A stretch of DNA of 64,000 bases from Candidatus Aldehydirespirator sp. (GCA_965221215.1 OZ244872.1:3288862-3352861), one strand, 5' to 3'. Shown: positions 5,226-53,025, counted from the stretch's first letter. Notes: generated from the letters alone by a model not told the origin. Made by a program: numbers and translations.

Positions 5226-5226
5226 G

Positions 5227-17666: not shown

Positions 17667-17762
17667 CCTCCCGGCCCGTGCGGCGGGCGAGTCCTCCCCT
17701 CCGCTGCCGACCCCTGCTTATCCTGTCTGATTGACGGGCGCCCGCCCCGTCGGATCGGTGCG

Positions 17763-20363: not shown

Positions 20364-20382
20364 CCCAGTGGCGGTCTCTCAA

Positions 20383-20416
20383 CTATTCGCTCGGCCTCTG
20401 GGCCGGGCGGGGCAGG
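20383..20416 (+). repeat. partial copy (3' part) of the intergenic repeat family
   Basis: CTATTCGCTCGGCCTCTGGGCCGGGCGGGG matches the 3' end of copies B and C. It encodes the last residues and stop of holB on the other strand. Confidence 0.6.
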
Positions 20417-32358: not shown

Positions 32359-34884
<2,526 letters not shown>

Positions 34885-34915
34885 GCGCCCCCTCCTTCGG
34901 GGGCGACTGACGGCC

Positions 34916-36520
34916 ATGGCTGCTCAGCGCCGGGCCAGGCGGCTGCCACAGCGCAGGCGCGCCAGGCTGGGTTGCGGGATAGGCGTTCGGCGCGCCGCGG
35001 CTGTTCTTCGCGCGGTGGTGCTGGCCGTGGGGCTGGCGCTGCTGATGGCGGCTTGCCGGGTGGACACGGCGGTGCATGTGGACGTCGAGGAGGCCGGCTC
35101 GGGCACGGTGACGGTGGTGTTCAACGCCGACGCGGTGGCGGTGGGCCGGGTGCCGGAACTGGCCGGGGGGCTGCGCCTCGATGATGCTCGGGCTGCGGGC
35201 TGGGCGGTGGAGGGTCCGCTGTTCCGCGCCGACGGCGGTGTGCAGATCCGAGCGGTCAAGCGGTTCGAGTCGGCCGGGCAGCTGCCGCAGGTCCTCGAGG
35301 AGCTGGCCGGCCCCGATGTGATCTTCACCGATGTGGTGCTCGAGCAGACGCGCTCCTTTGCTGAAACCTCCTACCGCTTCAGCGCCCGCATCGATCCGGC
35401 CCCGCCGCTGGACGCCTTCAGCGACGGCGCCCTGGCCCAGATCTTCGAGGGCCAGCCCTTCGGGCGCCCGTTGGCGGAGTTGATCGCGGAGGCCGGAGCC
35501 CCCACCGATTCGCTGGGCTTCGAGTTCCTGCTGACGCTGCTCGACTCCGACGGGGCCTTCAGCGCCTCCTCGTCCGGCCTCGACGCAGCAGGCGATCCCG
35601 CCGGTGGGGCCGCGGCGCCCGCGGTCGACGGCTCCACCGCGGCGTGGCGGTTCCCCTACGGCGACCAGCCCGTGGTGGTCGGCGCCTCCACCCTGGTCGA
35701 GGACACGGTGGCCCCGCTGTGGCTCAACATCGCCCGGGTGGCCGGCCTCGCCTTCGGTGCAGTGCTGCTGGGGGTGATTGTGGCCAGGGTGGTGGTGCTG
35801 GTGCGCACCCCCAAGGGGCGGGGCCGCCGGGCCACCCGCCGCCGCCAGCAGCGGGCCGCGGCCCGCGAGGCCGAGGCCAGCCGTCCCCGCAAGCGGCTGT
35901 TGAGGCTGCTGGTGGTGGACGTGCACGGGGTGATCGTGCGCCCCACCGACCCGCGGGGCGGCCTGCTGCTGCCGGTGATCCTGAGCGAGAACCCCGACCT
36001 CGACCCGGAGCTGATCCGCGACCGGCACCGCATGCTGGTGCTGGGCCGCCTCACCGCCGAGGAGTTCTGGAGCGATCTCGGGCTCGGGCCTATCGGCCGG
36101 CAGGTGGAGACCCGCTACCTGTCGTCGTTCAAGCTGGTGCCGGGCCTGCACCCGTTCCTCGACCGGGTGGCCAGCCGGGGCCTGCCGGTGGCCGCCATCG
36201 GCAACCAGCCCCGAGAATGGGGTCAGCGCCTGCGGCGCATGGCCCAATTGGAGGACTCGGTGTCGTCGTGGCTGGTCAGCGGCGAGGTGGGCGCGGTGCT
36301 GCCCGAGCGCCCGCTGTTCGAGGCGACCCGCCGGGTGATGTCGGTGGACCTCTACGACTGCCTCTACCTGTCGAGCGTGCCCGAGTATCTAGACGCCGCC
36401 TCCGACATGGGAATGGCCACCGGCTACTTCGCGGCCAGCCCCGAAGACGTCCAAGAGACCGAGCACACCCTCATCCGAGGCTTCGACGACATTCTCAAAG
36501 GTCGCTCCCCCACCCCCTGA
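34916..36520 (+). CDS. putative lipoprotein (LppM/DUF3153-like ectodomain) fused via a TM segment to a HAD-like hydrolase domain
   Basis: Lipobox-like LLMAAC. Internal TM LAFGAVLLGVIVARVVVLV. HAD motif I-like LLVVDVHGVIV. The C-terminal half has HAD-like organisation. Confidence 0.6.
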   Translation: MAAQRRARRLPQRRRARLGCGIGVRRAAAVLRAVVLAVGLALLMAACRVDTAVHVDVEEAGSGTVTVVFNADAVAVGRVPELAGGLRLDDARAAGWAVEGPLFRADGGVQIRAVKRFESAGQLPQVLEELAGPDVIFTDVVLEQTRSFAETSYRFSARIDPAPPLDAFSDGALAQIFEGQPFGRPLAELIAEAGAPTDSLGFEFLLTLLDSDGAFSASSSGLDAAGDPAGGAAAPAVDGSTAAWRFPYGDQPVVVGASTLVEDTVAPLWLNIARVAGLAFGAVLLGVIVARVVVLVRTPKGRGRRATRRRQQRAAAREAEASRPRKRLLRLLVVDVHGVIVRPTDPRGGLLLPVILSENPDLDPELIRDRHRMLVLGRLTAEEFWSDLGLGPIGRQVETRYLSSFKLVPGLHPFLDRVASRGLPVAAIGNQPREWGQRLRRMAQLEDSVSSWLVSGEVGAVLPERPLFEATRRVMSVDLYDCLYLSSVPEYLDAASDMGMATGYFAASPEDVQETEHTLIRGFDDILKGRSPTP

Positions 36521-40345: not shown

Positions 40346-40603
40346 GATCACCCACAGCGACCGCCACCACAAGCAACACGAGCCCACCACTCGACGTACT
40401 CCCACGCCGAGAAGCGATTCCGCGGCCACGAGCCTCGTTCCCGTTCATCGAGATCGGCCTGGAGTCGTTGGCTCCGGCGACAACACGACCGGCGGCCACA
40501 GACCCTCACGCTGCAATGCGCCCAGCAGCGCGGCGGTCCGCCGATTGCGACTCGCCAGGAAGGACACAGCACCCCAGTCGAGCGAACAGATAGTTCGCTG
40601 GTG

Positions 40604-40677
<74 letters not shown>

Positions 40678-40770: not shown

Positions 40771-41130
40771 TCAGCAGGGGGGTATGGCGGCCGCGGCTCG
40801 GGTCTTGAGGCCGCGGCCGAGGCCTTCGTCGTAGGCGACTACCCGGTCTGCGGTGGCCGGGGTCAGGCTCTTCCACAGGACTGGGCTCCACGCCACCTGC
40901 GCCGATACGACTACACCGGCGTCGGCTTCGGCGCAGGCCTCGACGCCCTCGGTCTCGGGCGGCGCGCACCCCTCGTGAGTGATGCAACTGGCCACGAAGT
41001 TGGTTGCGGCGTGCTCGGCCCGGATCTCGGCCAGGTCGGCGGCCGCGGCGTGAGCCGCGTGGTCGCGCAGCGAGACCGCCATGGCGGTGACCATGGCGGC
41101 CAGCATCAACACCAGCACCGGGACAGTCAT
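40771..41130 (-). CDS. TadE-like/pseudopilin-like protein 3 of Tad-like locus 2
   Basis: 119 aa. N-terminal hydrophobic helix MTVPVLVLMLAAMVTAMAV, then a small Cys-containing domain. Last gene of the operon. Confidence 0.5.
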   Translation of the reverse strand: MTVPVLVLMLAAMVTAMAVSLRDHAAHAAAADLAEIRAEHAATNFVASCITHEGCAPPETEGVEACAEADAGVVVSAQVAWSPVLWKSLTPATADRVVAYDEGLGRGLKTRAAAAIPPC

Positions 41131-41140
41131 CGGAGTCTCA

Positions 41141-41506
41141 TTACGACGCGGGGCAGGCGACCCGCGCGTTTGCTGAAGCGGCCGGCCGGGCCTGGGCGTA
41201 GCCGGTGAAGCACACCCGGTTGCCCGACACGTCGCACTCCACGGTTACCGTTGCCGACTGGCCCGCGCTGATCACGTCGATGTCCGAGTTGGTTTCGTTG
41301 CAGGCGGAGAGCGTCGCTCCAAGAGCGATCCGTTCGCCGGTGTCGGCTGCTTCGAGACCGGTTGCCTGCGAGGCTGCCTGGGCGGCCAGCTCGGCCGCGA
41401 CCGCGGTGCGGGCCTGGCCGTTGGAGAAGCCGCCCACAAGGGCCACCGCCCACAGCGCCAGCGCCACCACAGGAGATGCCAACACCAGCGCCACTGCCTC
41501 ATCCAT
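41141..41506 (-). CDS. TadE-like/pseudopilin-like protein 2
   Basis: Start at MDEAVALVLASPVVALALWAVALVGG, followed by a Cys-containing beta-rich tail. The track ORF is longer (to 41590). Confidence 0.5.
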   Translation of the reverse strand: MDEAVALVLASPVVALALWAVALVGGFSNGQARTAVAAELAAQAASQATGLEAADTGERIALGATLSACNETNSDIDVISAGQSATVTVECDVSGNRVCFTGYAQARPAASANARVACPAS

Positions 41507-41653
41507 CGTGCCGACCCTCCAGACAAGGCCAGACGACCGCGGAACGACCTGCCTGCGCCCGGGTGCGATCATTCTGTGAGCGCAGAGCACAGCCCGAGCG
41601 GCCCGCGAGCGGCGAGGACATTGCCGTCACCGCAAGGGCCTCGCGCCTTTTGA

Positions 41654-42070
41654 TCAGCATGGTGGTGCTAGGGCCCAGCCGGTGGCGTAGGCGGCCCGCG
41701 ACGGCCGGCACGCCACCGCGGTGGCTTCCAGCCAGCGGTGGGCGCCCGCCGCGCCGACGGTGACGGTGGCCACCACCGTGCACGACGGCTCGGCGGTGAG
41801 CGTGTAGCCCGTCGCGGTGGCGGCCGAGCGGGCCCCGGCGCGGGAGGCCGCGGCCTGAGCCGCGGCCTCCTCGGCATCGGCCCAGCCGGTGTGGGTGTCG
41901 GTGCAGTCCCAGCCAGCTCCGTCGAGCACCTGAGCCGCGGCGGTGGCTGCGGCCACTGCCGCGGTGGATGCGGTGATGCGGGCCACCTGATGGAGGTATA
42001 CGCCGAAGCTGACCGCCACCACCACGAAGATCATCGCGGTGGTCCGCAGCGCCCCGAAGGCTGTGTCCAT
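41654..42070 (-). CDS. TadE-like/pseudopilin-like protein 1
   Basis: 138 aa. N-terminal helix TTAMIFVVVAVSFGVYL. Ala/Thr-rich domain with 3 Cys. Confidence 0.5.
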   Translation of the reverse strand: MDTAFGALRTTAMIFVVVAVSFGVYLHQVARITASTAAVAAATAAAQVLDGAGWDCTDTHTGWADAEEAAAQAAASRAGARSAATATGYTLTAEPSCTVVATVTVGAAGAHRWLEATAVACRPSRAAYATGWALAPPC

Positions 42071-42118
42071 CGCCGGTGTGCCCCCGACCGCTCAGCGACT
42101 CGACTGGAGTCGAACCGG

Positions 42119-42325
42119 CTAGCTGCACGTCTTGGAGCTGGCCGACCAAGTGCCCCCGACGGCCTTGCACAGGTTCTCGTGCTTGATCTGCGACCGGTCG
42201 GTGTCGGGATTGCGCTTGGTGTCGGGCGTGTTGTTGCCGACAATCTGCCAGGTGAACAGCACAACCGCGGCTGTGATGGCAATCGTGGCGGCGAGCATGA
42301 TGATCTTGGCAACTGGTGAGTCCAT
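42119..42325 (-). CDS. small pilin-like protein (68 aa, non-Flp)
   Basis: Strong RBS GAAGGAGG 9 nt upstream. N-terminal helix AKIIMLAATIAITAAVVLFTW. C-terminal Cys pair (C53, C67). No G/xxxxEY site. A 6-bp hairpin at 42096-42112 follows the stop. Confidence 0.55.
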   Translation of the reverse strand: MDSPVAKIIMLAATIAITAAVVLFTWQIVGNNTPDTKRNPDTDRSQIKHENLCKAVGGTWSASSKTCS

Positions 42326-42382
42326 GGGAGATGCCTCCTTCGTGGTGTTCGTTGGAATGTTGGGAGCGGCGAAGAGCGGTGC

Positions 42383-43105
42383 TCACACGCCGATTTGGAT
42401 GCTGGCCAGCAGCGCGATCACAACGACCGCGCTGGCGGCTATCGCCGCGAGGGTGCCGGTGCCGGCCACCGAGCGGCCCAGGGCCTCAATGCGCACCCGC
42501 CGATGGTCTTCGAGGGCGTGCACGGCCTGGGCAATGAGCCGGTCGATCAGACCGGAGGCTGCGGCCCCGCCCCGCTCGGCCGCGGCCAGCGTGCTGACCA
42601 GCGTCTCGGCCGCAGAGCCGGAGAAGTGAGCCGACGCGGCTCCCAAGGGATCGGTCCCCGAGGCCAGGGCGAGGTTGATGCTGGTGGCGGCGGGAGCGAA
42701 GGCGGGTGCCTCCACCCGCTCGGCGGCCTCGACCGCGGCGTCGTTGATGGGACGGCCCGCGGCCACGTACAGGCGGATGCGGCGCAGCCACTCCAGCATG
42801 GCGGCGTCGCGGCGGGCCCGATAGCCCGACAAGACCACGCCGCGCAGTAGCGGCGAGACGGCCACCGGAACCCACCAGACCACCGCCACCGCGGCCAGGG
42901 CCCCGATTCGGTAGCCCGCCATGACCGTCCCGGCGGCCAGCACCACAGCTGCCGCCACACCGCCAGCCGCGGCCGAGGCGGCCCGCAGCCGGTGCGGCGG
43001 CCATCCCGCGGCCGCAAGCTCGACGGTGTTGGCTCGCCGGGGCGGGTCGGTTAGCACCATCCGCAGCGCTGCCGCCGCACCCGACAACGCAGTGAGCCAC
43101 ATCAT
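42383..43105 (-). CDS. TadC-like platform protein (T2SSF-like)
   Basis: 240 aa with TM segments at both ends. The central soluble repeat pattern LEWLRRIRLYVAAGRPINDAAVEAA...AETLVSTLAAAERGG is typical of T2SSF. Confidence 0.6.
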   Translation of the reverse strand: MMWLTALSGAAAALRMVLTDPPRRANTVELAAAGWPPHRLRAASAAAGGVAAAVVLAAGTVMAGYRIGALAAVAVVWWVPVAVSPLLRGVVLSGYRARRDAAMLEWLRRIRLYVAAGRPINDAAVEAAERVEAPAFAPAATSINLALASGTDPLGAASAHFSGSAAETLVSTLAAAERGGAAASGLIDRLIAQAVHALEDHRRVRIEALGRSVAGTGTLAAIAASAVVVIALLASIQIGV

Positions 43106-43169
43106 CTCGAGCCTCTCAAGATCCCAGCCGCGGCGAGTCTCCGTCGCGGGCGCTGACCCGGAGCCGGGC

Positions 43170-43982
43170 TCATTGCAGACCTCCGTAGCGCGACGCTGCC
43201 CGGGCGGGCAGCAGGACGCGGGCGCTCAGGGCCGCGACGACTGCGGCGCCGGCCATCAACAAGGCGGCGCCCCGGCCGCCAGCCAGCCACGCGCCCACAT
43301 CGGCGGCGACCTGTCCCGCTCCGGCCACCAGTCCGGCACCCAACAGCACAACCAGGGCCACGGTGGGCATGGCCACCGCCACCCGAGCGTGGAACAGCCG
43401 GGCGGTGGCTGCGGTCTGGGAGGCCTCGGCTTCGAGCACGGCCACGGTCTCGGCCCAGCGACCGCCGCCCTCGGCTGAGATGGAGATTAAGTCGGCCAGG
43501 GAGCGGGCCACAGCCGAGGGCACCCGGGCCGCGAACCGCTCGGCGGCGACATCCACCCCGACGTTCTCGCAGTCGGCAGCCATCGCCACCGCGGCCGCGC
43601 CGACCGGTCCGCTCACCAGCGGGGCTGCCCTGGCCACCGCGTCGGAGGCGGTCACCGCCACTGCGGCCTGGTTGGTCAGCACGCTCGCGAATCGAGCCAC
43701 TCCCTCGGCGATCGCGACCCTTCGCCTCGACACCACCAGCACCTTCACCGCGGCCGTGCAAACGACTGCACAGATCGCGGCCGCGGCCGCGTGGCCCGCC
43801 GATAGGCCCAGCACGATCAAGGCGGTGCCGCTCGCGGCGGCAGCCGGCAACTCCGCGGGGACTCGAGTCCGGCGACGGCCTTCCCTTGACCGCAGCGACC
43901 AGCGAGTCCCGCTCGCGGGCCACAACATGATGGCCACCCCGATAGCGCCGCCCGCAACGATGATCCATCCCGAGGCGCTCAT
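43170..43982 (-). CDS. TadB-like platform protein (T2SSF-like)
   Basis: ATG 43982 overlaps the ATPase stop (ATGA). N- and C-terminal TM segments. Central pattern VARFASVLTNQAAVAVTASDAV...LADLISISAEGGG. Confidence 0.6.
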   Translation of the reverse strand: MSASGWIIVAGGAIGVAIMLWPASGTRWSLRSREGRRRTRVPAELPAAAASGTALIVLGLSAGHAAAAAICAVVCTAAVKVLVVSRRRVAIAEGVARFASVLTNQAAVAVTASDAVARAAPLVSGPVGAAAVAMAADCENVGVDVAAERFAARVPSAVARSLADLISISAEGGGRWAETVAVLEAEASQTAATARLFHARVAVAMPTVALVVLLGAGLVAGAGQVAADVGAWLAGGRGAALLMAGAAVVAALSARVLLPARAASRYGGLQ

Positions 43983-45616
43983 TGCGGAGCTCCGTTGCGG
44001 TCTGCGGCGCTCGAGTCGCCGCCCACCAGCTGCAGGGCGGTCCGGCGGGGCTCGGCCTGTGGGGCAGGGCAGTGAACGGTTACGGCTGCCGACCGGTAGA
44101 CGTCGGCCATCCGGCCCACGGGCTGCTCTACCGGCGCGGCCCACCGCTCCCCGGGCTGCAGCCGCCACAGGCCGCGGGTCGAGATCGCGCCGTCGGCGCC
44201 GGTTCCGATGATCTGGGTCACATCCGCGATCACCCGCTCGCCGGCGTGGTTGCGGCCCATCCACACCAGCAGATGCACCGCGATGGCTATCGACCGGCGG
44301 GCCAGGCTCTCATCGGCGCCCTCGGAGGTGGCGTAGGCGGTGAGCTTCTCCATCACTCCGTCGCCGGGCGGGGAGTGCAGCGTGACGATGCAGCCGTCGA
44401 GCCCCGACGACATGGCGTCGAGCAGGGCCATCGTGCCCTCTCCCCGCACCTCGCCCACCACCAGCTTGGAGCTGTTGGCCCGCTTGGCGTCGCGTACATG
44501 GTCGGCCATCGAGTGCTTGCCCACGCCGTCGTTGTTGGCATCGCGGGTGAGCCGCTCGTAGGCGTTGGGATGGATGCCGTACTCGCGCAGCCGCAGCTCG
44601 GGGGTGTCCTCGATGGTGTCGACCCGCTCCTCGGGCGGAACCCTCGCCAGCAGCGCCTGGCACAGGGTGGTCTTGCCGCCTCCCATCGCCGCCGCCACCA
44701 CCACATTGGCCCGCACATCGCCGGCGATGGCCTCCACCAGCACGTCGGCCAACTGCTCGCTGCACAGTCCCAGCTCGGCGAGGCTGCGCTGGCCGCCCAG
44801 GTTGCTCCGCAGCACCAGCGTCGGCGGCGAGCAGACGAAGGCCTCGGCGTGCAGTCGCCACCGATCGCCGACGCGGGTGTCGAGGCGGGGATCCAACTCG
44901 TCGAAGCGCTGCGGGCGCTCGCCGGAGTAGGCGGCCAGGAACCGGCACGCTCCGATGAGCTCGTCGTCGCTCGAGAACGGGGACGGGCGACTCTGCCGCT
45001 CGCCGTTGGAGAACTCGACCACCATCGACTCGCCGCCCCGGATCTGGAACTCCTCCACGTCGTCCTCGTCGAGCATCTCCCGCAGCCGCCGGGCGGCCGC
45101 CGCCGAAGCGGACTCGCGCCGCACGGCCCGGTCGGTGCTGTCCATCCGCTGCGGCGCGGCGGCTAGCGAGCCCAGCGAGCGACCCAGACGGCGCAGCGCC
45201 CGCTCCGAGCGCCGCGTGGGCATCGGCGTCACTGCTCGCACCACTTGGGCGCCGGCCAGCAGCCGTACCTCGGCGGCGTCCACCACCTGGTCTGCCATCA
45301 CAACCAGGGCCAACGGCACTCGGGCTGCGGATCCGGTGCTCAGGTGCAGCCTGCCCCGCAGCCCGCGCCCGGTGCCGACAGTGACCCACAGCACTCCGGC
45401 CGCCGCCGACGCGGTGGAGCGCAGCACGCTGTCGTCGGCGAAGGCGTCGACGCTGACCACGGTGGCCCGGTGCGCGGCGGTTGCCACAGCCCGGTCGGCC
45501 AGCGACTCGCCCACCACAACGTCGGCAACCGACGATCGCACCCCGTCGATAACCGTGCGCACCACCCAGCCGGCGGCGTGCGGGTCGAGAGTGCGGTCAG
45601 CCGAGATCATCAACAC
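43979..45616 (-). CDS. CpaF/TadA/VirB11-family secretion ATPase with an N-terminal extension of about 190 aa
   Basis: 545 aa. Walker A AAAMGGGKTTLCQAL, Walker B/Asp box KLVVGEVRGEGTMALLDAM, His box GCIVTLHS. RBS GGGGAG before the GTG. Confidence 0.85.
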   Translation of the reverse strand: MLMISADRTLDPHAAGWVVRTVIDGVRSSVADVVVGESLADRAVATAAHRATVVSVDAFADDSVLRSTASAAAGVLWVTVGTGRGLRGRLHLSTGSAARVPLALVVMADQVVDAAEVRLLAGAQVVRAVTPMPTRRSERALRRLGRSLGSLAAAPQRMDSTDRAVRRESASAAAARRLREMLDEDDVEEFQIRGGESMVVEFSNGERQSRPSPFSSDDELIGACRFLAAYSGERPQRFDELDPRLDTRVGDRWRLHAEAFVCSPPTLVLRSNLGGQRSLAELGLCSEQLADVLVEAIAGDVRANVVVAAAMGGGKTTLCQALLARVPPEERVDTIEDTPELRLREYGIHPNAYERLTRDANNDGVGKHSMADHVRDAKRANSSKLVVGEVRGEGTMALLDAMSSGLDGCIVTLHSPPGDGVMEKLTAYATSEGADESLARRSIAIAVHLLVWMGRNHAGERVIADVTQIIGTGADGAISTRGLWRLQPGERWAAPVEQPVGRMADVYRSAAVTVHCPAPQAEPRRTALQLVGGDSSAADRNGAPQ

Positions 45617-46214
45617 GGTCGGGCTCCCCTTCGTTGGGCGGCGCGGGCGGACATCCTGGCCAGCCCGCGGCGGGCGATTCCCATATCCACCACACCGTCG
45701 GACCCAGCACTGCGGCCAGTTGCGGCCCGGCCTCGACTACCACGGTGCCCTCGCCCACCAGCACCACCGGCAGCACCGCCGCGGCGCAGCCGCCCGGCTT
45801 GGCGGCCAACACTGCAGCATCGCCGGCTCTGGGTCCCGGCTCGGGCCACAGCGACGGGTCGACCGCCACGGCCAGCAGGGCAGCCGACAGATCCGAGGCT
45901 GCGGGCACAGCCGAATCGGCCATCAGGGCTGCAGACACCACTGTGCCGGCCGGAACGGCCACTGCCGGCACCCGGTCGGCCAACTGGTCGGGGGTCACGA
46001 ACAGAGCGGCCGACTCCTCGGGCAACTCCACCATCACGTATTCGCCCGGCTCGCGTCCTGGGGACCAGTCCTCGGCTGTGGCCACGACCTGCACCGTCGT
46101 CTCGGGCTCGGTGCGTCCGAACAGCAACACCGACAGCACAACCACCACAACGATCACGGCAGCGGCGGTGAACCGCCGGGCTTGGCCCGACATCTGGGAG
46201 GGGTTGGTGCCCAT
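45597..46214 (-). CDS. CpaB/RcpC-like pilus assembly protein (TM + SAF-like domain)
   Basis: 205 aa. N-terminal TM RRFTAAAVIVVVVVLSVLLFG. SAF-like VQVVATAEDWSPGREPGEYVMVELPEE...VPAGTVVSAALM. AGGAG RBS. The track ORF is over-extended. Confidence 0.55.
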   Translation of the reverse strand: MGTNPSQMSGQARRFTAAAVIVVVVVLSVLLFGRTEPETTVQVVATAEDWSPGREPGEYVMVELPEESAALFVTPDQLADRVPAVAVPAGTVVSAALMADSAVPAASDLSAALLAVAVDPSLWPEPGPRAGDAAVLAAKPGGCAAAVLPVVLVGEGTVVVEAGPQLAAVLGPTVWWIWESPAAGWPGCPPAPPNEGEPDRVDDLG

Positions 46215-46222
46215 CGCTGCTC

Positions 46223-48190
46223 CTAAGCCGCCGGCACCGGCGTCGCGGTGCCTTGTTGGAGGGTGATGCCGGACGTGTAGTCGACGATCTCCAGGAACCA
46301 TTCGACGCCGCTGGCGAGGGTGACGCATTGGTGGAAGGTTTTGTCGTTCCCGATGCCCTCGAAGCAGGCACGGGCCTGCCAGGACCAAACCCCCGGCGCC
46401 GGCAGCTCCCAGCGGCAGTCGTCGTAGGAGTGCGCCGACGCCTTGGCCGTCTCGATGCCGCATGAGGCCTTCACGTTCCGGCTGGTGTGGTGCTGTTGGG
46501 CCTGGGTCTGCTGGGCCGCGCTCAGGTTGTCCCAGCGGCGCAGGTAGGTGGCCAAGTCCGCGTCGGGCCGGGCCGAATCGGCGTTTTCGATGGTGGCGCG
46601 GTGCCCCGCACGCCACGGCAGCAGCTGGGTGAGGCGGGTCTCGACGCTGACAACCTCCCACAGGCAGCCGTCGTGGCTGTCGACGTACCAGACTCCCTGT
46701 GGATCGGCTACCGGCCACACCGGCGACCCCGACACCACCAGGTGCTGGGCGCCGCCGGGCACGTTGGGATGCGGTGGCCAGGGTCTCCCCGACTCGCCCT
46801 GCGGCTCGATGCCCACCAGCGTCGCCCACTGCAGCTGCGACACGAGCAGCGAACGCTCACTCGTCGACAGCGACAGACCGGTGGTACACGGCGCTGCATC
46901 CTCGTCCGGGGGGTTGGGATCATCAGGCCTGCGAGGATCGCCCGGTTTGCGAGGGTCGTCCGGTTTGCGGGGATCAGCCGGCTTGCGAGGAGTGGGACCG
47001 TCTTCGTCGTCATCCTCGGGGAGGATCCGAGCCAGGAAGGCGGCGAGCTGCTCGTTGTCCATCGTCGAGTCGGGGTCGGCGTCGGGCCGTGTGTAGGGGT
47101 TGGCCACCCCGTCGCCGTCGCGGTCGTGACCCTTCAGAATCCCCAGATCGGCCAACTCGTCGGCCACCTCGAACGGGTCGTCGTCCGGGTCGAACTCGAT
47201 GCCGAGCCCGGCCGCAATAGCGATCAACATTTGCCCTCGCGTGACAAGTCCCTCGGCCGGCAGGGTTTTCGTGGCCGAGTCCGCGTCGAAGTCGGGGTTG
47301 TGCTCCCCGAAGGCCTTGAGGATCTTCACCAGGTCGACGGCTTCGCTCTCCTCTTCGGGGTCGTAGTCCTCAGGCAAGTAGCCGTTGTCGATGCCGGATT
47401 CGATTTCATCGCACGCCCAGTCGGCGGTGCACCCTTGATCCTCATTGTCCGGGACTTGGGTCGTGGTGGTGGCGGGCGGAGCGGTTGTGGTGGGCGTCGG
47501 ACGTCGAGTGGTGGTAGTGACGGGCCTCCTGGTGGTTGGCACGGGTCGGGCCGTCGTGGTGGGCGGCGGCCGTCGGACAGTTGTGGTGGGCACTGGCCGT
47601 CGGGTGGTGGTGGGTCTTTGGGTTGTTGTTGTGGGGCGTCGGGTCGTGGTTGGTGGCGGTTGAAAGCAGTGGTTGGGTGGGCTGCAGATGGGTGGCCTGG
47701 TGGTAGTCGGCCTCCTGGTGGTGGTTGGTGGCGGTTGAAAGCACTGGTTGGGTGGGCTGCAGATCGGGAGCCGGGTTGTGGTGGGTCGTCGGACAGTTGT
47801 GGTGGGCACCGGCCGTCGGGTGGTGGTGGGTCTTTGGGTTGTTGTCGTGGGGCGTCGGGTCGTGGTTGGTGGCGGTTGAAAGCAGTGGTTGGGTGGGCTG
47901 CAGATGGGTGGCCGGGTGGTGGTCGGGCGTCGGGTCGTGGTTGGTGGCGGTTGAAAGCAGTGGTTGGGTGGGCTGCAGATGGGTGGCCGGGTGGTCGGGG
48001 GCCGCGTGGTGGATGTTCTGTGGGTGTGGCCTCGGAAGAGCGGGTGAGCTGACGCCGACTTGGTGCCCAGGCCCAAGTCGGAGCGCTGGTGGGCAATCAC
48101 CCCGCCCAGCACCAAGGCGGCGGCGAGGGCGATGATCACCAGCGCGTTGCGGCCTGGAGACGGTCGGGACGGTTGTGGCGATGCAAACAT
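46223..48190 (-). CDS. secreted or anchored surface protein: signal/anchor + Pro/Thr-rich CSPPN(H/Q)C repeats + acidic SLH-like/Ca-binding-like segment + Cys/Trp-rich C-terminal domain
   Basis: 655 aa from ATG 48190 (AAGGAG RBS). N-terminal helix ALVIIALAAALVLGGVI. Four copies of PICSPPN(H/Q)CFQPPPTTTRRPTTT. SLH-like motifs VTRGQMLIAIAAGLG and EQLAAFLARIL. DRDGDG. Confidence 0.8.
   Translation of the reverse strand: MFASPQPSRPSPGRNALVIIALAAALVLGGVIAHQRSDLGLGTKSASAHPLFRGHTHRTSTTRPPTTRPPICSPPNHCFQPPPTTTRRPTTTRPPICSPPNHCFQPPPTTTRRPTTTTQRPTTTRRPVPTTTVRRPTTTRLPICSPPNQCFQPPPTTTRRPTTTRPPICSPPNHCFQPPPTTTRRPTTTTQRPTTTRRPVPTTTVRRPPPTTTARPVPTTRRPVTTTTRRPTPTTTAPPATTTTQVPDNEDQGCTADWACDEIESGIDNGYLPEDYDPEEESEAVDLVKILKAFGEHNPDFDADSATKTLPAEGLVTRGQMLIAIAAGLGIEFDPDDDPFEVADELADLGILKGHDRDGDGVANPYTRPDADPDSTMDNEQLAAFLARILPEDDDEDGPTPRKPADPRKPDDPRKPGDPRRPDDPNPPDEDAAPCTTGLSLSTSERSLLVSQLQWATLVGIEPQGESGRPWPPHPNVPGGAQHLVVSGSPVWPVADPQGVWYVDSHDGCLWEVVSVETRLTQLLPWRAGHRATIENADSARPDADLATYLRRWDNLSAAQQTQAQQHHTSRNVKASCGIETAKASAHSYDDCRWELPAPGVWSWQARACFEGIGNDKTFHQCVTLASGVEWFLEIVDYTSGITLQQGTATPVPAA
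47453..48016 (-). repeat. in-frame tandem repeats (75-bp unit nested in a roughly 225-bp duplicated block) encoding the PT/Cys repeats
   Basis: Protein residues 59-246. The block PPICSPPNHCFQPPPTTTRRPTTTR-PPICSPPNHCFQPPPTTTRRPTTTTQRPTTTRRPVPTTTVRRP occurs twice almost identically. Confidence 0.9.
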
Positions 48191-48210
48191 GGCAGCAGCT
48201 CCTTTGAGGG

Positions 48211-49641
48211 TCAGCAGGTGGTGGGGAAGTGCCGTTCGGGGGTGGCGTGGTGGTGCTCCATCCACTCCTCGGCGAGACGGGCTGAGCGCCAGCAGTCCCT
48301 TCTGTCCAGGCCGAAGATGTCTTGCTCGACCCACTCACTCCAGGCGGCGCAATCGTTGCCGAAGCGCTCCGGCTCAATGTGGGGCCACCCGGTTCTGGTC
48401 TCAAGCTCCACGTCGGCGGGAAGCACGGTGCGGCACCGTTCGGCCAGCGTCATGGTGGCCGACAACATCAGGCCGGCATCGTTGGTCCGGCCTGCGGGGG
48501 TATCGGCGACTAGAGGGTCAATGACGGTGGCGCAGTGGTGCCACCCGTGGCGGTTCATGGCGGTGGCGCCCCTGAGCCCGGCGGCGTAGGCGTCGGCACG
48601 GTCCTGGTATTCGTTGAGCACGCACCACGGATGTGCACCCAGGTAGTCCATCGCCCACTTCATCTGGGTGAGCAGCCACCTGCAGTTGCCGCGGGGCTGA
48701 TCGAAGCACCAACTCGTCCAGCGGGCCACATCGCTGGTCCAGCGGGGAATCTCGTCGGGCCTCCCCGAAGCGCAGATGCCTCCTACGCCCTGGTCGGGGT
48801 ACGGGCTGGGACAGCCCGTCAGATCCTGGGGCGTCTCCCACTCTGACGGCGGGTGACAGTCGGAGGGCCACGGCGGACCCGGGTCGCAGATCGGGTAGTC
48901 CCAATAGGGATGTTCACGGGGGATCATTCCCAACTCGGGGGCGGGCGGATGGCCGCCCTCGGGCGCAGGACTCGTCCCCGCCACCGTGACCGGAATCGTG
49001 GTGGTCGCAGGCGGAGCGGTCGTCGTGGGTGGCGGCGGTGTCGTCGTGGTGGTCGTCGTGGTTGTAGTGGCCGGCGGGGCGGTGGTTGCGGGTGGGGCGG
49101 TGGTTGGCGGTGTCGTTGTGGGCGGCGGGCTGGTGGTTGTGGGCGGCGGAGCGGTCGATGTGGCTGGGGCCAAGAAAGTCGGTGTGGTCGCGGCGCTCGT
49201 GTTGTCGGGTGGTGCGTCTTCGTCGCCGGGTACGGAGGCGGAGGCCTCGGTCGTTGCGACTGCTGTCGTGGGAGTGATGGCGCCGATCATTTGCGGGGCC
49301 GGGTCGGCGGGGACCTCGACGTTCTCGGCGGGGAGATCTTCGAACAGCAGCTTGGGCGGCCACTCGATTGCCGGTTCATCGGCTGGCGGGAGGCTCGGAT
49401 CGGTGGCGTCGTTGTCCCGGTCAGCCTCTGCGCCGCTGGGTTCAGGCGGGTCGGAGTCGGCGGTGGCCAAGACCGGCTCGGGGTTGTCGGCGGTCCCACA
49501 GCTGGCCGCGAACACGCCGAGGGCGACCACCAACGTGATCGCCACCCGGAGTGCGCAAGGTCTGGGGATGGTCTTCGAGACTCCGCCAGATGAAGCTGTG
49601 GGGCGGTGGTTGGCAATGGATTCAAAATGACAGAAATGCAT
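48211..49641 (-). CDS. putative lipoprotein with acidic region, poly-Pro/Thr linker and Cys/Trp/His-rich C-terminal domain
   Basis: 476 aa from ATG 49641. Lipobox-like LGVFAASC (Cys48). PT linker at residues 148-217 (48991-49200). C-terminal domain with 10 Cys. The track ORF extends artefactually to 49914. Confidence 0.65.
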   Translation of the reverse strand: MHFCHFESIANHRPTASSGGVSKTIPRPCALRVAITLVVALGVFAASCGTADNPEPVLATADSDPPEPSGAEADRDNDATDPSLPPADEPAIEWPPKLLFEDLPAENVEVPADPAPQMIGAITPTTAVATTEASASVPGDEDAPPDNTSAATTPTFLAPATSTAPPPTTTSPPPTTTPPTTAPPATTAPPATTTTTTTTTTPPPPTTTAPPATTTIPVTVAGTSPAPEGGHPPAPELGMIPREHPYWDYPICDPGPPWPSDCHPPSEWETPQDLTGCPSPYPDQGVGGICASGRPDEIPRWTSDVARWTSWCFDQPRGNCRWLLTQMKWAMDYLGAHPWCVLNEYQDRADAYAAGLRGATAMNRHGWHHCATVIDPLVADTPAGRTNDAGLMLSATMTLAERCRTVLPADVELETRTGWPHIEPERFGNDCAAWSEWVEQDIFGLDRRDCWRSARLAEEWMEHHHATPERHFPTTC

Positions 49642-49648
49642 GGGGGAA

Positions 49649-49677
49649 CACTTAGCGCACTCAAAGGCAATGTGCAA
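49649..49677 (-). promoter_or_regulatory. putative promoter of Tad-like locus 2 (-35 TTGCAC, 17-nt spacer, -10 TAAGTG); would give a leaderless or near-leaderless mRNA
   Basis: On the minus strand the -35 is at 49677-49672 and the -10 at 49654-49649, 7 nt before ATG 49641. It sits in the only AT-rich gap of the region, divergent from hpnC. Confidence 0.35.
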
Positions 49678-49678
49678 C

Positions 49679-49704
49679 TTTTTTGTGATATTTCTTTGAA
49701 AATC
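49679..49704 (-). promoter_or_regulatory. AT-rich box GATTTTCAAAGAAATATCACAAAAAA (minus strand), homologous to 5198-5225
   Basis: See the alignment given for feature 5198-5225. Same position, directly 5' of the -35 element. Confidence 0.4.
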
Positions 49705-49789
49705 AGCGTTGACCTGGGCATTTGAGTCTCTGAACGACCGCCCGGTCGTCGCCGGTGGTAGCTTCGAGCCGGTGGGAGGGGAGCCAGTA

Positions 49790-50671
49790 GTGGACGGCGC
49801 TACGCAAAACGACCCTTCGGAGCACGCCGCCGCTGAGCGCCATGTGGGGCTCGACGCGGTGATGGCCCGGGCATCCTCTGAGAATTTCCCGGTGGCGCTG
49901 CAGCTCCTGCCCACCGCGGTGCGGCAGCACCTGCGGGCCGTCTACGGCTACGCGCGGCTCGTCGACAACCTCGGCGACGAGTACCCCGGCGACCGTCCGG
50001 CCGCCCTGGACTGGGTGGAGGCCCAGATCGACAGCCTGTTCGCAGGAGCCCCCCGCCACGAGGTCTTCGTTCGGCTGGCTCCCACGGTGGCGCGCTTCGG
50101 GCTGGACCGCAGGCCTTTCGACCGGCTTCTGGCCGCCAACCGGCTCGACCAGCACAAGCACCGCTACGCCGACTTCGACGAGCTGATGAAGTACTGCGAG
50201 CTGTCGGCCGACCCCGTCGGCCACCTGGTGCTGGCCGTGTTCGAGGCGGCTACCCCCGAGCGTCTGGCCGCCTCCGACCAGGTCTGCCGCGGCCTGCAGG
50301 TGCTGGAGCACCTCCAAGATGTGGGCGAGGACGCCGCTCAGGGGCGCGTCTACCTCCCCGCCGACGACATGGAGCGCTTCGGCGTGTCCGTCGAAGACCT
50401 CCGCGCTCCGGCGGCGTCGGCGGGCCTGCGAGGTCTGGTGGCCTACGAGGCGGCCCGGGCCCGGACCATGATTGGTGAGGGGCGGGGGCTGGTGGCATCG
50501 CTTCGCGGCCCGGCCCGCCTGGCCGTGGCCGGGTTCGTGGCCGGGGGGCTGGCCGGTCTCGATGCCATCGAGGCGGCCCGCTTCGAGGTGCTGGGCGGCC
50601 TTCGCAAGGCCGGACCGGCCCGAGTGGCGGCCCGCTTCGCAAGTGTGTACCTGGGAGCAGGCAACCCGTGA
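49790..50671 (+). CDS. hpnC: hydroxysqualene synthase (squalene/phytoene synthase family, HpnC-like)
   Basis: ENFPVALQLLP...RAVYGYARLVDNLGDE is an HpnC-type N-terminus. The GTG 49790 start is uncertain (track TTG at 49709; ATG at 49861 also possible). Confidence 0.75.
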   Translation: MDGATQNDPSEHAAAERHVGLDAVMARASSENFPVALQLLPTAVRQHLRAVYGYARLVDNLGDEYPGDRPAALDWVEAQIDSLFAGAPRHEVFVRLAPTVARFGLDRRPFDRLLAANRLDQHKHRYADFDELMKYCELSADPVGHLVLAVFEAATPERLAASDQVCRGLQVLEHLQDVGEDAAQGRVYLPADDMERFGVSVEDLRAPAASAGLRGLVAYEAARARTMIGEGRGLVASLRGPARLAVAGFVAGGLAGLDAIEAARFEVLGGLRKAGPARVAARFASVYLGAGNP

Positions 50672-51576
50672 TCTCGGCCGAGGCTGCCTACCGGTGCTGC
50701 GAGGAGATCACCTGGTCGCAGGCGCGCAACTTCGCCTACGGGATCCGTCTGCTGCCGCCGCCCAAGCGCCGGGCTATGGCTGCGCTCTACGCCATGGCCC
50801 GCCGCATCGACGACGTGGGCGACGGCGACTGGTCCCAGGACCGCAAGCTCGCCGCCCTCGACGAGCTCCACCAGTCCATCGACGCGCTGGCGGCGGGCAA
50901 GATCGCCGATGCCTCGGATCCGGTGCTGGTGGGCTTGGGCCACGCCGCCGACCGCTACCCCATCCCGGTGGCCGCGCTCCACGAGATCGTGGAGGGCAGC
51001 GAACTCGACGTGCGAGGCGCCAGCTACGCCACCATGGACGACACCGTGCGCTACTGCCGGCTGGTGGCCGGCTCGGTGGGCCGGCTGTCGCTGGGCGTGT
51101 TCGGCGCCAAGCCCGCTCGGGCCGTGGCCGCGGGCCCGAACAGCAGCCGAGCCGGCACCGCTGAGGCGGCCCAGTCCCCAGAGGAACTGGCCGACGACCT
51201 CGGCGTGGCCCTCCAGCTCACCAACATGCTGCGAGACATTGTCGAGGACCACCGCATGGGGCGCATCTACCTGCCCGAGCAGGACCGGGACCGCTTCGGG
51301 ATCGTTCCCGGCCAGTGGTCGCCGCCCGAGAACGCCGCCGCGCTGGTGCAGTTCGTGGCCGGTCAGGCGGTGATGTGGTTCGAGCACGGCCTGGTGCTGC
51401 TCGATCACCTCGATCATCGCAGCCGGGCCTGCACTGCAGCCATGGCTGGGATCTACCGGCGGCTGCTGAGCCGCATGCTGGCCCGGCCGGAGACTCCGCT
51501 ACAGGGGCGGGTCAGCCTTGCCGCCCACCAGAAAGCCCTGGTGGCGGCCCGCAGCCTGTCCGGGCTGAGGCCGTGA
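50668..51576 (+). CDS. hpnD: presqualene diphosphate synthase (HpnD-like)
   Basis: AYRCCEEITWSQARNFAYGIRLLPPPKRRAMAALYAMARRIDDVGD, then LQLTNMLRDIVED. It overlaps the hpnC stop. Confidence 0.8.
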   Translation: MISAEAAYRCCEEITWSQARNFAYGIRLLPPPKRRAMAALYAMARRIDDVGDGDWSQDRKLAALDELHQSIDALAAGKIADASDPVLVGLGHAADRYPIPVAALHEIVEGSELDVRGASYATMDDTVRYCRLVAGSVGRLSLGVFGAKPARAVAAGPNSSRAGTAEAAQSPEELADDLGVALQLTNMLRDIVEDHRMGRIYLPEQDRDRFGIVPGQWSPPENAAALVQFVAGQAVMWFEHGLVLLDHLDHRSRACTAAMAGIYRRLLSRMLARPETPLQGRVSLAAHQKALVAARSLSGLRP

Positions 51577-51660
51577 GCCCGCGGATGGTGGTCGGCGGCG
51601 GACAGCCTGGGTTGAGGCGGTGAGTCCTCAGGCCGCGGCCGGTGACGGTTTGGCCGGGCC

Positions 51661-53025
51661 ATGGCCGTGAACGCCGGACCGCGGGTGGTTGTGGTCGGCG
51701 GCGGCTTGGCCGGGCTGTCGGCTGCGGTGGAGGCGGCCGACGGCGGTGCGTCGGTCACCCTGCTCGAGCGTCGCCCCCGCCTCGGCGGCGCCACCTGGTC
51801 ATTCGAACGCAACGGCATCTGGTTCGACAACGGCCAGCACGTATTCATGCGCTGCTGTACCGCCTACCGGGCTTTCCTGGAGCGGATCGGCTCGGCCGAC
51901 GGCGTGTGGATGCAGCGCCGCCTCGACGTTCCCGTGTTGGCGCCGGGCGGTCCGGTCGGGTCTATCAAGCGAACGCCCGGCCCGGCTCCCCTGCACCTGG
52001 CGCCCGCGCTGTTGACCTATCCCCATCTGAGCCTGCGCCAGAGGCTGGCCGTGCTGCGGGCCGGACTGGCGCTGAGGCGGCTCGATCCCGACGACCCGGA
52101 TCTCGACCGCATGGCCTTCGGAGACTGGCTGTCGGCGCACGGCCAGGACGCCGCCGCGGTCGAGACCTTCTGGAACCTGATCGTGCTGCCGACGGTCAAC
52201 GTGGGAGCGGCCGAAGCCTCCCTCAAGCTCGCTGCCCGGGTCTTCGTGACCGGGCTGCTAACCGAGGCCGCCGCGGCCGACATCGGCTGGGCCCGGATGC
52301 CGCTGTCGGCTCTGCACGGCGACGCCGCCCGCCGGGCGTTGGAGGCCGCCGGAGGCGAAGTCCGCCCGCGCCTCGCGGCCACCGCGGTGCGAGCGGGCGC
52401 CGCCGGCCTGGAGGTACACGCCGACGGGCAGGTCATCGCGACCGACTCGGTGGTGGTGGCCGTGCCCCACGACGCGGCAGCCGCACTGCTGCCCACCGGC
52501 ACGGTGGCGGCGCAGGACCGGCTCGTCGAACTGGGCACCTCCCCGATCGTCAACGTCCACCTGGTGTACGACCGCCCGGTCACCGATCGGGCCCTCTTCG
52601 CCACCGTTGGCAGCGACGCCCAGTTCGTGTTCGACCGCACCGCCGGGGCCGGCCTCGACGACGGCCGCCAATGCCTGGCCGTGTCTCTGTCGGCCGCCGA
52701 GTCGTACATCGGCACGGCCTCGGCCGATCTTGTGGCCCACTTCACCGCCGAGTTGGCCCGCCTGTTGCCCGCGGCCGCCACCGCGGTCGTTACCGAGTCG
52801 ATCGTCACCCGCGAGCATTCGGCCACCTTCAATGGCGTGCCCGGCACCGACTCGCTGCGGGCCGGCCCCGAGTGCGGCCTGGCCGGTGTGTACCTGGCCG
52901 GCGCCTGGACCGACACCGGATGGCCGGCCACGATGGAGGGAGCGGTCCGCAGCGGAACCGAGGCCGGCCGGCTCGCGGCCCGCTTCGCATCCCGATCTGC
53001 CACCACCCGAGCGGATCGCGAGTGA
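51661..53025 (+). CDS. hpnE: hydroxysqualene dehydroxylase (FAD-dependent amine-oxidase fold, HpnE-like)
   Basis: Dinucleotide-binding motif VVVVGGGLAGLSAAVEAADGG. Its position after hpnC/hpnD fits. Confidence 0.8.
   Translation: MAVNAGPRVVVVGGGLAGLSAAVEAADGGASVTLLERRPRLGGATWSFERNGIWFDNGQHVFMRCCTAYRAFLERIGSADGVWMQRRLDVPVLAPGGPVGSIKRTPGPAPLHLAPALLTYPHLSLRQRLAVLRAGLALRRLDPDDPDLDRMAFGDWLSAHGQDAAAVETFWNLIVLPTVNVGAAEASLKLAARVFVTGLLTEAAAADIGWARMPLSALHGDAARRALEAAGGEVRPRLAATAVRAGAAGLEVHADGQVIATDSVVVAVPHDAAAALLPTGTVAAQDRLVELGTSPIVNVHLVYDRPVTDRALFATVGSDAQFVFDRTAGAGLDDGRQCLAVSLSAAESYIGTASADLVAHFTAELARLLPAAATAVVTESIVTREHSATFNGVPGTDSLRAGPECGLAGVYLAGAWTDTGWPATMEGAVRSGTEAGRLAARFASRSATTRADRE

Follow-up and report, generated by a model that had tools for sequence, protein, structure and literature searches.

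In a 64,000-nucleotide (nt) stretch of the genome of Candidatus Aldehydirespirator sp. (GCA_965221215.1 OZ244872.1:3288862-3352861; hereafter the window, with positions counted along the whole stretch), a ten-gene locus at 40771–49641 (locus 2) accompanies a canonical Tad locus (locus 1). Nine core genes and one further gene, G1, make up locus 2, a functional operon in a monoderm sponge symbiont of the Acidimicrobiia. We give an even chance to the reading that its products form an envelope machine that is Tad (type IVc)-like but strongly diverged, with leaderless subunits and of probable integrative conjugative element (ICE) ancestry, which is now chromosomal and most likely serves in attachment, the C-terminal domain of G2 linking a variable stalk or adhesin to it. 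Ten open reading frames (ORFs), all on the minus strand, fill the locus, with G1 first and G10 last:

48211 to 49641, minus strand: G1, a 476-amino-acid (aa) lipoprotein whose linker is rich in Pro/Thr and whose C-terminal part is rich in Cys (15 Cys), from its lipobox and repeats
46223 to 48190, minus strand: G2, a 655-aa secreted or anchored protein with a hydrophobic segment (residues 12–36), repeats, an acidic middle and a conserved C-terminal domain
46226 to 46918, minus strand: conserved C-terminal domain of G2, ~220 aa, from the family alignment
45597 to 46214, minus strand: G3, a membrane protein of 205 aa with one membrane pass, its ectodomain SAF/CpaB-like and bearing two invariant Cys, from alignment and weak SAF matches
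43979 to 45616, minus strand: G4, a 545-aa secretion ATPase of the CpaF/TadA clade, from Pfam T2SSE, TIGR03819 and CpaF structures
45077 to 45616, minus strand: N-terminal domain of G4 (residues 1–180), flavodoxin/receiver-like, from an AlphaFold2 (AF2) model and Foldseek
43170 to 43982, minus strand: G5, a polytopic membrane protein of 270 aa that resembles TadB only in position and topology, from its hydrophobicity layout
42383 to 43105, minus strand: G6, a 240-aa TadC-like platform protein, from Pfam T2SSF and topology
42119 to 42325, minus strand: G7, a 68-aa leaderless pilin-like subunit that opens with MDSPVAK, followed by a 22-aa hydrophobic helix and a C-terminal loop closed by two Cys (QIKHENLCKAVGGTW...C)
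41654 to 42070, minus strand: G8, a 138-aa leaderless TadE-like minor subunit with 4 Cys (MDTAFGALRTT, helix, HQVARITASxAAxAAAxAA..WDC)
41141 to 41506, minus strand: G9, a 121-aa leaderless TadE-like minor subunit with 4 Cys (MDEAVAL, helix; weak match to TIGR03816)
40771 to 41130, minus strand: G10, a 119-aa leaderless minor subunit with 4 Cys, opening with MTVPVLVLML, from the family alignment

Intergenic gaps from G1 to G10 are 20, 8, −20, −4, 64, 57, 48, 147 and 10 nt. GC content at third codon positions (GC3) is 0.80–0.90 in all ten genes, and the window as a whole has 70% GC. Shine-Dalgarno-like sites precede G2 (AAGGAG), G3 (AGGAG), G4 (AAGGGGAG), G7 (GAAGGAGG, the strongest ribosome-binding site within the operon) and G9 (TGGAGGG). 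A preliminary description of the locus had listed ten minus-strand genes with this spacing and strong ribosome-binding sites before several of them, and the coordinates, gaps and sites were all reproduced. Ratios of nonsynonymous to synonymous substitution rates (dN/dS), calculated against four orthologous loci, show purifying selection in 10 of 10 genes (0.05–0.5), with G1 and G2 evolving fastest. A decaying pseudo-operon was considered and rejected in view of these ratios and of the conservation of the genes. A consensus scan of the operon region found no sigma-70 consensus promoter, and the region holds four terminator-like hairpins (2.7 expected by chance). Existing annotation names the ATPase alone ('CpaF family protein') and lists the other locus 2 genes as hypothetical proteins. 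Pfam and NCBIfam scans gave no match for G1, G2, G3, G5, G7, G8 or G10, and an exact-sequence look-up found no record of the window G4.

A pattern scan of one genome per Genome Taxonomy Database (GTDB) species recovered 150 loci, and the best 80 of these all belong to metagenome-assembled genomes (MAGs) of Acidimicrobiia. Many lie in sponge-named taxa (Ca. Aldehydirespirator, Poriferisocius, Poriferisodalis, Spongiisociaceae), and several families of Acidimicrobiales are represented. The ATPase has hundreds of close homologues, the few named ones being 'CpaF family protein' from Acidimicrobiia MAGs; the window copy is 98% identical to that of an 'Acidimicrobiia bacterium' MAG and 89–90% identical to those of Ca. 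Aldehydirespirator. Iterative hidden Markov model searches with each window protein were run over 82 fetched loci. The order G3–G10 is constant in 77–82 of them across an ATPase identity span from 98% to 52%, and the misses are mostly truncated contigs; conservation of the gene set in other genomes is thus borne out for these eight genes. G10, with dN/dS of 0.10–0.32, was recovered from 77 of the 82. One locus in a Spongiisociaceae genome (L043, 8001–15488) has the module broken up, with the ATPase match at 8001–10184, G5 from 11410 and G6 from 13214, which suggests that this operon carries insertions such as insertion sequence (IS) elements. The same genome also has a separate cluster of coupling-protein and ArdC genes (L089).

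The four small proteins G7–G10 carry neither a conserved glycine nor a G/xxxxE[YF] site in the window, and a class III motif occurs in 0–2 members of each family (G-x4-E in 1 of 60 G7 proteins and in none of G8 or G9). In all four families the start codon lies at, or a few residues before, the hydrophobic helix, and the sequence upstream is unconserved. G7 proteins begin M[DEQ]S[PA][VI]x[KRQ] and continue with the helix, an NTP motif and a two-Cys C-terminal loop, the start and motif being kept in at least 60 distinct homologues. The G8 family reads M[DE]TAxxxLR, helix, HQVARITASxAAxAAA..WDC; G9 begins M[DS][ED]AVxL and G10 MT/SVP, each followed directly by the helix. Among distinct homologues, an in-frame stop occurs no more than 12 codons upstream of the helix in 42 of 67 G8, 38 of 67 G9, 10 of 60 G7 and 7 of 48 G10 genes. 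Because such stops occur in many loci, a leader is ruled out, and the family alignments show that G7–G10, as encoded, are made without a leader peptide. Subunits of locus 1 carry class III sites (Flp RG/QTTAEY and TadE AG/QATVEF, cleavage marked here and below by a slash) behind leaders of 30–37 aa and contain zero Cys; the predicted extracytoplasmic parts of locus 2 have 2–4 conserved Cys each. By Pfam and NCBIfam, no prepilin peptidase and no TadZ/CpaE ParA-like homologue is found among the ten genes of locus 2. On each of these points, the absence of class III sites here, their presence in locus 1 and the lack of peptidase and TadZ genes, the preliminary description was correct. Within the window, no Peptidase_A24 was seen among the locus 1 genes or the larger ORFs scanned. 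Prepilin peptidase genes are frequently located elsewhere in Actinobacteria.

The genome must, by inference, encode a prepilin peptidase for the Flp and TadE of locus 1, and G7–G10 might be processed by this TadV at a very short leader, for example after Gly6 in MDTAFG/ALRTT or MSEALG/LLKV. A glycine does stand at position 6 in the window G8 and in several mobile-element subunits. However, the position is unconserved (A, V, L or S in G8, A in G9), the glycine is absent from G7 and G10, and no Glu follows at +5. We consider such processing highly improbable.

Similarity to known pilins was sought with family models and pairwise profiles. G7, presumed to be the major subunit, has no Pfam match to DUF4244 or Flp_Fap, and G8–G10 have none to TadE PF07811. 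The sole model touched by any small subunit is TIGR03816, the TadE-like Rv3654c family, which G9 matches from its first residues (E = 0.0023, 18 bits against a cut-off of 51). Alignment with hhalign relates G8 to G9 (56% probability, E = 1e-4) and gives nothing convincing against the locus 1 proteins (G7–Flp E = 0.01, G9–TadE E = 0.008). A common N-terminal motif, M-[DSE]-[ETS]-[AW]-hydrophobic-[GA]-x-L-[KRQ], runs through the families and is also present in the mobile-element versions. The pilin reading therefore rests on the G9 match, on gene order and size, and on this shared motif. G7–G10 could instead be ordinary Cys-rich proteins, inserted by Sec or cleaved by signal peptidase I, with the ATPase and platform doing other work. 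This would fit the lack of significant matches of G7, G8 and G10 to Flp, DUF4244, TadE or other pilin models, and an AxA-like motif past the hydrophobic segment in G10 (TAMA/VS) and its homologues. Yet the N-termini have no positive n-region typical of Sec substrates, their hydrophobic stretch is 22–28 residues long, and the gene order (platform, a protein of ~70 aa, three of ~120–140 aa) is that of tad loci. With the G9 match and the motif common to the families also pointing to pilins, we regard ordinary Sec substrates as very unlikely.

The ATPase ties the operon to Tad systems. All G4 motifs are intact and invariant across the family (Walker A GGGKTT, Asp box TIEDTPEL, Walker B LVVGEVRG, His box TLHS), and Pfam T2SSE is matched above its cut-off (1.5e-13). 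Searched against PDB, the family profile aligns with the Caulobacter CpaF structures 8rkd and 9e24 at ~1e-30 over residues 178–485, with archaeal GspE, VirB11 and FlaI at 1e-10 or weaker. By these matches G4 belongs to the CpaF/TadA clade and not to the GspE clade. Among NCBIfam models TIGR03819 fits G4 best (140 bits, the cut-off being 373), and the locus 1 ATPase scores 320 bits on it; the two window ATPases are 31% identical. A CpaF-family ATPase with an N-terminal extension had been proposed for this gene, and the profile comparison with CpaF, VirB11, FlaI and GspE structures upholds that identity. The extra region, ~180 aa, is conserved family-wide and modelled by AF2 (pLDDT 90) as a six-stranded alternating beta/alpha domain. 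Its Foldseek matches are all of generic kinds, namely flavodoxin-like, receiver (CheY, PleD, NarL) and ParA/FlhG folds, the best reaching E = 3e-3. Among 1.84 billion representatives, its profile picks out only 21 clusters; the domain there either occupies the N-terminus of an ATPase of 510–694 aa or lies in short proteins that resemble contig-edge fragments. At the end of strand 3 the family alignment lacks a conserved phospho-acceptor Asp, and hhalign shows no relation to the ParA-like protein of locus 1. A fused TadZ/Ssd is not supported, given only generic folds and no stand-alone relatives found by the profile. Because profile matches are restricted to G4-type ATPases and fragments, the domain is, by this measure, a lineage-specific addition with no detectable TadZ/Ssd fusion.

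G3 and G5 are present in 82 of 82 loci. Pfam SAF hits fall at one and the same position in eight of ten G3 homologues (E values from 5e-4 to 0.08, at or below the gathering score), and one homologue carries the NCBI name 'SAF domain-containing'. The G3 profile has one match in PDB, RcpC 9gzr, which is non-significant (E = 0.46), and hhalign finds no relation to the ParA-like protein of locus 1. The ectodomain module of G3 (W..GP.AG..A....GGCA ... W.CP) occurs as a tandem duplicate in several lineages (L083 6047–6946; L084 7144–8001; L085 1007–1846; P0231, P0220 and others, ~285–299 aa). G6 matches Pfam T2SSF with E = 5.9e-5 (23.5 bits against a cut-off of 25.2, model positions 1–120 of 125), its orthologue in L087 is weakly flagged as T2SSF, and its topology fits that of TadB/TadC of locus 1. 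G5 has hydrophobic segments at residues 1–25, 52–87, 196–229 and 238–260 with a soluble domain of ~108 aa between, a layout like that of locus 1 TadB/TadC. It aligns with G6 over collinear regions (hhalign E = 0.11), and two family members weakly match Spore_III_AB. PDB profile searches with G5 and G6 gave chance matches only. The preliminary description had named a CpaB/SAF-like protein and two T2SSF-like platform proteins. G6 holds up, just below threshold, whereas G5 qualifies by topology only; the SAF matches of G3 are consistent in position but all sub-threshold. The accompanying statement that CpaB is present here and absent from locus 1 is right for locus 1, among whose genes there is no CpaB-like gene, and sub-threshold for locus 2.

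The two large proteins differ in their conservation. G1 carries the lipobox VFAAS/C, and 22 of 22 distinct homologues have an equivalent, which identifies it as a lipoprotein; its Pro/Thr (PT) repeats were confirmed. It evolves with dN/dS of 0.25–0.40, and its detected occurrences (23 of 82 loci) are confined to the Aldehydirespirator clade; judged by this distribution, it is a clade-specific accessory lipoprotein gene. Repeats in G2 occupy 47571–47995, where a 75-nt unit is present 4.9 times and a 216-nt unit twice; they encode PPICSPPNHCFQPPPTTTRRPTTTR, a PT/Cys repeat of 25 aa. The lipoprotein and the PT/Cys repeats had both been described correctly beforehand. G2 was detected in 71 of 82 loci and aligns through its last ~220 aa only, the N-terminal two thirds being hypervariable and Pro/Thr/Cys-rich across loci. 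Conserved residues of the C-terminal domain include C435, W455, P478, G479, W492, C509, W511, C577, C592 and W594 and a PGG motif, and the domain also occurs in the mobile-element versions (p519). It has 23 homologues only, no Pfam match, a moderate AF2 model (pLDDT 72) and no fold match in PDB. The proposal that both large proteins are conserved with the ATPase module and form its cargo or tip thus holds in part: the G2 C-terminal domain is co-conserved with the module, but G1 and G2 are not equivalent. Because G1 is patchy and G2 is conserved only C-terminally, 'cargo or tip' is an inference for the G2 C-terminal domain only.

Co-conservation of the G2 domain with the motor would also suit a secretion machine, in which G7–G10 form a short piston like the pseudopilus of a type II secretion system (T2SS) that pushes G2, and G1 in loci that have it, through the cell wall for display. 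The large secreted proteins come first in the operon, one small major and three minor subunits recall T2SS or Com pseudopili, and Rv3654c/Rv3655c of the related Mycobacterium tuberculosis locus are reported to be secreted (PMC2864267). However, signals of the Sec or lipoprotein type are already present on G1 and G2, so a dedicated exporter is not obviously needed; seven loci keep the motor and subunits without G1 or G2; and the ATPase is of the CpaF rather than the GspE clade. We think an exporter unlikely.

ATPases with the same N-terminal domain, only 43–49% identical, sit in mobile elements, namely ICEs of the type IV secretion system (T4SS) type. Two examples are:

L086, 1 to 16940: Acidimicrobiia T4SS-type ICE with a Tad-like module
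L088, 3369 to 22115: Acidimicrobiia T4SS-type ICE with a Tad-like module and two copies of ArdC

Gene order in both runs from a VirB4-like AAA_10 ATPase through a 713-aa protein, an SLT lytic transglycosylase, a VirD4/TraG coupling protein, ArdC, p244 and p616 to a G2-like protein, G3–G10, p399 and a tyrosine integrase. L083 and L084 have a ParA gene in addition to the conjugative set. In L067 (12726–15468) the module, a p399 homologue and a tyrosine integrase abut a tRNA-Arg gene, a classical island boundary parallel to the tRNA-Thr beside G10 in the window. Genomes with relatives of the coupling protein, found in the species collection by an alignment-based search, are apparently sponge-associated; three are named Acidimicrobiia, Spongiisociaceae and Poriferisocius. 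One of the loci, L091 (Ca. Poriferisocius, 21.5 kb), has a coupling-protein/ArdC region of 50% GC, compared with 64–72% in other loci, and a recent foreign origin is suggested because of this low GC. In a neighbor-joining (NJ) tree rooted on the locus 1 ATPase, the mobile-element copies are basal and the chromosomal copies of sponge symbionts are nested within them. The module is probably descended from, or sister to, the pilus module of T4SS-type ICEs of the same bacterial group. Because its nearest relatives lie inside conjugative mobile elements, reuse of a mating pilus for attachment is possible.

Searches with phmmer seeds found no homologue of the coupling protein, ArdC or the integrase in the window, and no VirB4 homologue is present there. 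The set of VirD4 coupling protein, VirB4-like ATPase and integrase occurs in L083, L084, L086 and L088 and not in the window, a comparison in which no relaxase search was made. Within 8 kb on each side of the ATPase, the other 82 loci likewise show no coupling protein, VirB4, ArdC or integrase homologue, apart from L063 and L067, where homologues of p244, p399 or the integrase occur. Housekeeping genes border locus 2, a permease and a tRNA-Thr at one end and HpnC/D/E, for hopanoids, at the other, and all larger window ORFs scanned are housekeeping. The tRNA gene may mark an old integration site:

40603 to 40677, minus strand: tRNA-Thr(UGU), from ARAGORN, 93 nt downstream of G10

Divergent from locus 2, at 49709–53025 on the plus strand, are two SQS_PSY genes and an amine-oxidase-type gene (HpnC/D/E-like, squalene/hopanoid synthesis), and the same neighbors recur in L001. 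Farther away, downstream of ClpC, a 570-aa ORF with high GC3 (34808–36520, plus strand) matches nothing in Pfam at E ≤ 1e-5.

Locus 2 might be a remnant or satellite of such an ICE that serves DNA transfer, through a mating-pair pilus, or DNA uptake, and has no role in host attachment. Its deeper relatives adjoin genes for VirB4-like, SLT and VirD4-type coupling proteins, ArdC and an integrase; in both the window and L067 the module has a tRNA gene beside it; and the nearest ATPase family in NCBIfam bears the name 'TadA family conjugal transfer-associated ATPase'. For uptake, Flp pili are required for transformation in the actinobacterium Micrococcus luteus (PMC4322843). These observations are countered by the lack of coupling protein, VirB4, ArdC and integrase homologues in the window, and likewise near the ATPase in the 82 loci save the two named, and by the housekeeping flanks. 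Purifying selection on all genes across many species argues against decay, and the operon contains no ComEA- or ComEC-like gene. A remnant of this kind is distinctly unlikely in our judgment.

Regulation appears to connect the two loci of the window:

49663 to 49700, minus strand: AT-rich promoter box (AAAGAAATATCACAAAAAAGTTGCACAT) upstream of G1, from a GC scan and sequence reading
5193 to 9429, plus strand: locus 1, a canonical actinobacterial Tad locus of the Rv3654c–Rv3660c type with its box at 5193–5240, used for comparison

Only two 30-mers with GC ≤ 30% exist in the 64-kb window, one at 5193, immediately upstream of locus 1, and one at 49663, immediately upstream of G1. AGAAAT..AAAAA..GTTGNACAT is present in both boxes (2 matches to the shared pattern, compared with 0 in shuffles), in agreement with the AT-rich box that had been noted as common to both loci. 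The G1 box is followed by a −10-like TAAGTG and then by a conserved CCATGCATTTCT that contains the G1 ATG. Loci of the Aldehydirespirator clade keep the box upstream of whichever gene is first, followed by a −10-like element and CCATG[CT]ATTTCT holding the start codon; this motif lies at 49630–49645 (minus strand) in the window, ~7 nt past the −10-like element, and is also upstream of G1 in L001, L006, L023 and others. Conservation of box, −10-like element and start-codon motif suggests that the G1 start codon apparently lies at the 5' end of the transcript, making the mRNA leaderless, and that loci 1 and 2 share a promoter or regulator and are co-regulated. The genes of locus 1 (5318–9429) encode a ParA-like protein of the TadZ/CpaE type (5318–6103), the ATPase, two T2SSF proteins, a DUF4244 Flp and a TadE_Rv3655c. 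Locus 1 (5318–9861) shares its neighborhood with TopA and the DNA polymerase III delta' subunit HolB (17667–21591), an arrangement that is conserved in actinobacteria and also seen in mycobacteria. A STAS anti-sigma-factor antagonist (9490–9861) follows locus 1.

Taken as a machine, locus 2 could work as follows. The AT-rich promoter common with locus 1 would drive a probably leaderless transcript. G4, of the CpaF clade, would dock on the polytopic platform pair G5 and G6, its N-terminal domain perhaps replacing the missing TadZ in localization or regulation, and membrane-anchored, SAF/CpaB-like G3 would form an extracytoplasmic collar. G7 as major and G8–G10 as minor subunits, leaderless as encoded, would insert with the N-terminus in and the C-terminus out, their ectodomains stabilized by disulfides, and would polymerize into a short surface filament with no prepilin-peptidase step. 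The G2 C-terminal domain would couple a variable Pro/Thr/Cys-rich stalk to the apparatus as an adhesin or filament-associated surface protein, and G1 would be a lineage-specific lipoprotein accessory. Chromosomally fixed without DNA-transfer genes, the machine would now most likely be used for attachment to host matrix or other cells. A bolder form of this reading is tentative, and we lean somewhat against it. It holds that the subunits are synthesized already mature, with no need of a prepilin peptidase, that an acidic residue 2 or 3 takes the place of the classical Glu5, that conjugative elements of the T4SS type in Acidimicrobiia first bore the machine as a pilus for mating or adhesion, and that sponge symbionts later domesticated it as a chromosomal, host-facing adhesion organelle co-regulated with the canonical Tad locus.

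Several points weigh against the attachment-filament reading. The machine is known from genes alone, with no filament, transcript or protein observed. G7, G8 and G10 resemble no pilin model significantly, and Sec signal peptides with AxA-like sites are an alternative reading of the N-terminal segments in G10 and perhaps G9. The 'CpaB-like' label of G3 is plausible and not proven, its SAF assignment being sub-threshold, and Pfam T2SSF matches 0 of 22 members of the G5 family, which leaves G5 with no detectable similarity to it. An adhesin role for G2 is a guess, given a moderately confident model of its C-terminal domain and no structural neighbor. In 7 of 82 loci neither G1 nor G2 was detected within the stretch examined, and the operon begins at G3 with the promoter box directly upstream. 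Finally, the NJ tree is rough and rooted on a distant paralogue, so long-branch artefacts may have shaped it.

Leader cleavage by a prepilin peptidase is treated as universal in the assembly of type IV filaments. If the reading is true, a conserved leaderless system would make the cleavage step dispensable and offer a minimal model for the leader's purpose, and the ICE link would show in a concrete case how a host can take over the pilus of a mobile element. Because the module is conserved across several families of uncultured sponge-associated Acidimicrobiia, it is, together with the variable G2, a candidate determinant of host or partner attachment in a major group of sponge symbionts. The ICE context of the deeper relatives, the discrete N-terminal domain of the ATPase and the sponge-associated Acidimicrobiia lineage had all escaped the preliminary description. 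Phrase searches of the literature, a weak negative in each case, found no description of the locus 2 module or of 'leaderless pilins', no Tad genes described for sponge Actinobacteriota (PMC11706023) and no Tad modules described in actinobacterial ICEs (PMC3218068).

Among known systems, locus 2 is first compared with the accessory type IV pili of conjugative elements, since on integrative elements its deeper relatives neighbor what looks like a complete T4SS set. One such pilus is the IncI1 R64 thin pilus, whose variable adhesin a variable, repeat-rich G2 would parallel. A tad locus is borne on plasmids of Cutibacterium acnes (PMC5696575). Unlike locus 2, these systems have prepilin peptidases and canonical pilins, and the window copy lies on no recognizable mobile element. 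RcpC/CpaB (PDB 9gzr; PMC12307814) offers a parallel to G3, in which an N-terminal anchor also precedes a SAF-like beta domain at the same relative position; the similarity is non-significant, however, and G3 has two invariant Cys in a host without an outer-membrane secretin for docking.

The 'helicase/secretion neighborhood' of Rv3654c–Rv3660c (TIGR03815, TIGR03816, TIGR03819, DUF4244, TadE_Rv3655c), to which locus 1 corresponds, is alike in overall gene order and supplies the best matches of locus 2, TIGR03819 for the ATPase and TIGR03816 for G9. Locus 2 nevertheless scores far below the cut-offs (140 vs 373 and 18 vs 51 bits), has no Ssd/CpaE-like gene, and does not have the TopA/HolB synteny, which belongs to locus 1. 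Apart from the weak match of G9 to TIGR03816, a DUF4244 pilin or a TadE_Rv3655c–Rv3654c pair with a Gly cleavage site was not found among G7–G10. Many actinobacterial systems stay 'generic' because their components are unrecognizable (Denise et al. 2019, PMC6668835). The earlier statement that the architecture matches no described Tad subtype stands: locus 2 reaches the threshold of no named Tad, Com or actinobacterial model, with the ATPase at 140 of 373 bits and G7 neither DUF4244 nor Flp.

Closest in layout are the Tad/Flp type IVc systems (Caulobacter cpa, Aggregatibacter tad, Bifidobacterium breve tad). They share with locus 2 an ATPase of the CpaF/TadA clade and a pilin-sized gene of ~70 aa followed by TadE-sized genes; their two separate small platform genes directly after the ATPase and their CpaB SAF gene upstream of it have putative counterparts in G5 and G6 and in G3, by topology and sub-threshold matches. 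Locus 2 also has no secretin, an absence expected in monoderm bacteria (PMC6668835). It differs in having no class III signal peptide, Flp or TadE Pfam domains, or TadZ, and in possessing a flavodoxin-like N-terminal ATPase domain, Cys-rich ectodomains and a G2 C-terminal domain without counterpart. With a CpaF-clade ATPase and none of the usual pilin, TadE, TadZ and peptidase features, it conforms to the second, strongly diverged Tad-like machine that had been proposed for this genome: Tad-like in its workings, outside the canonical Flp/Tad group, and most likely an adhesive surface filament.

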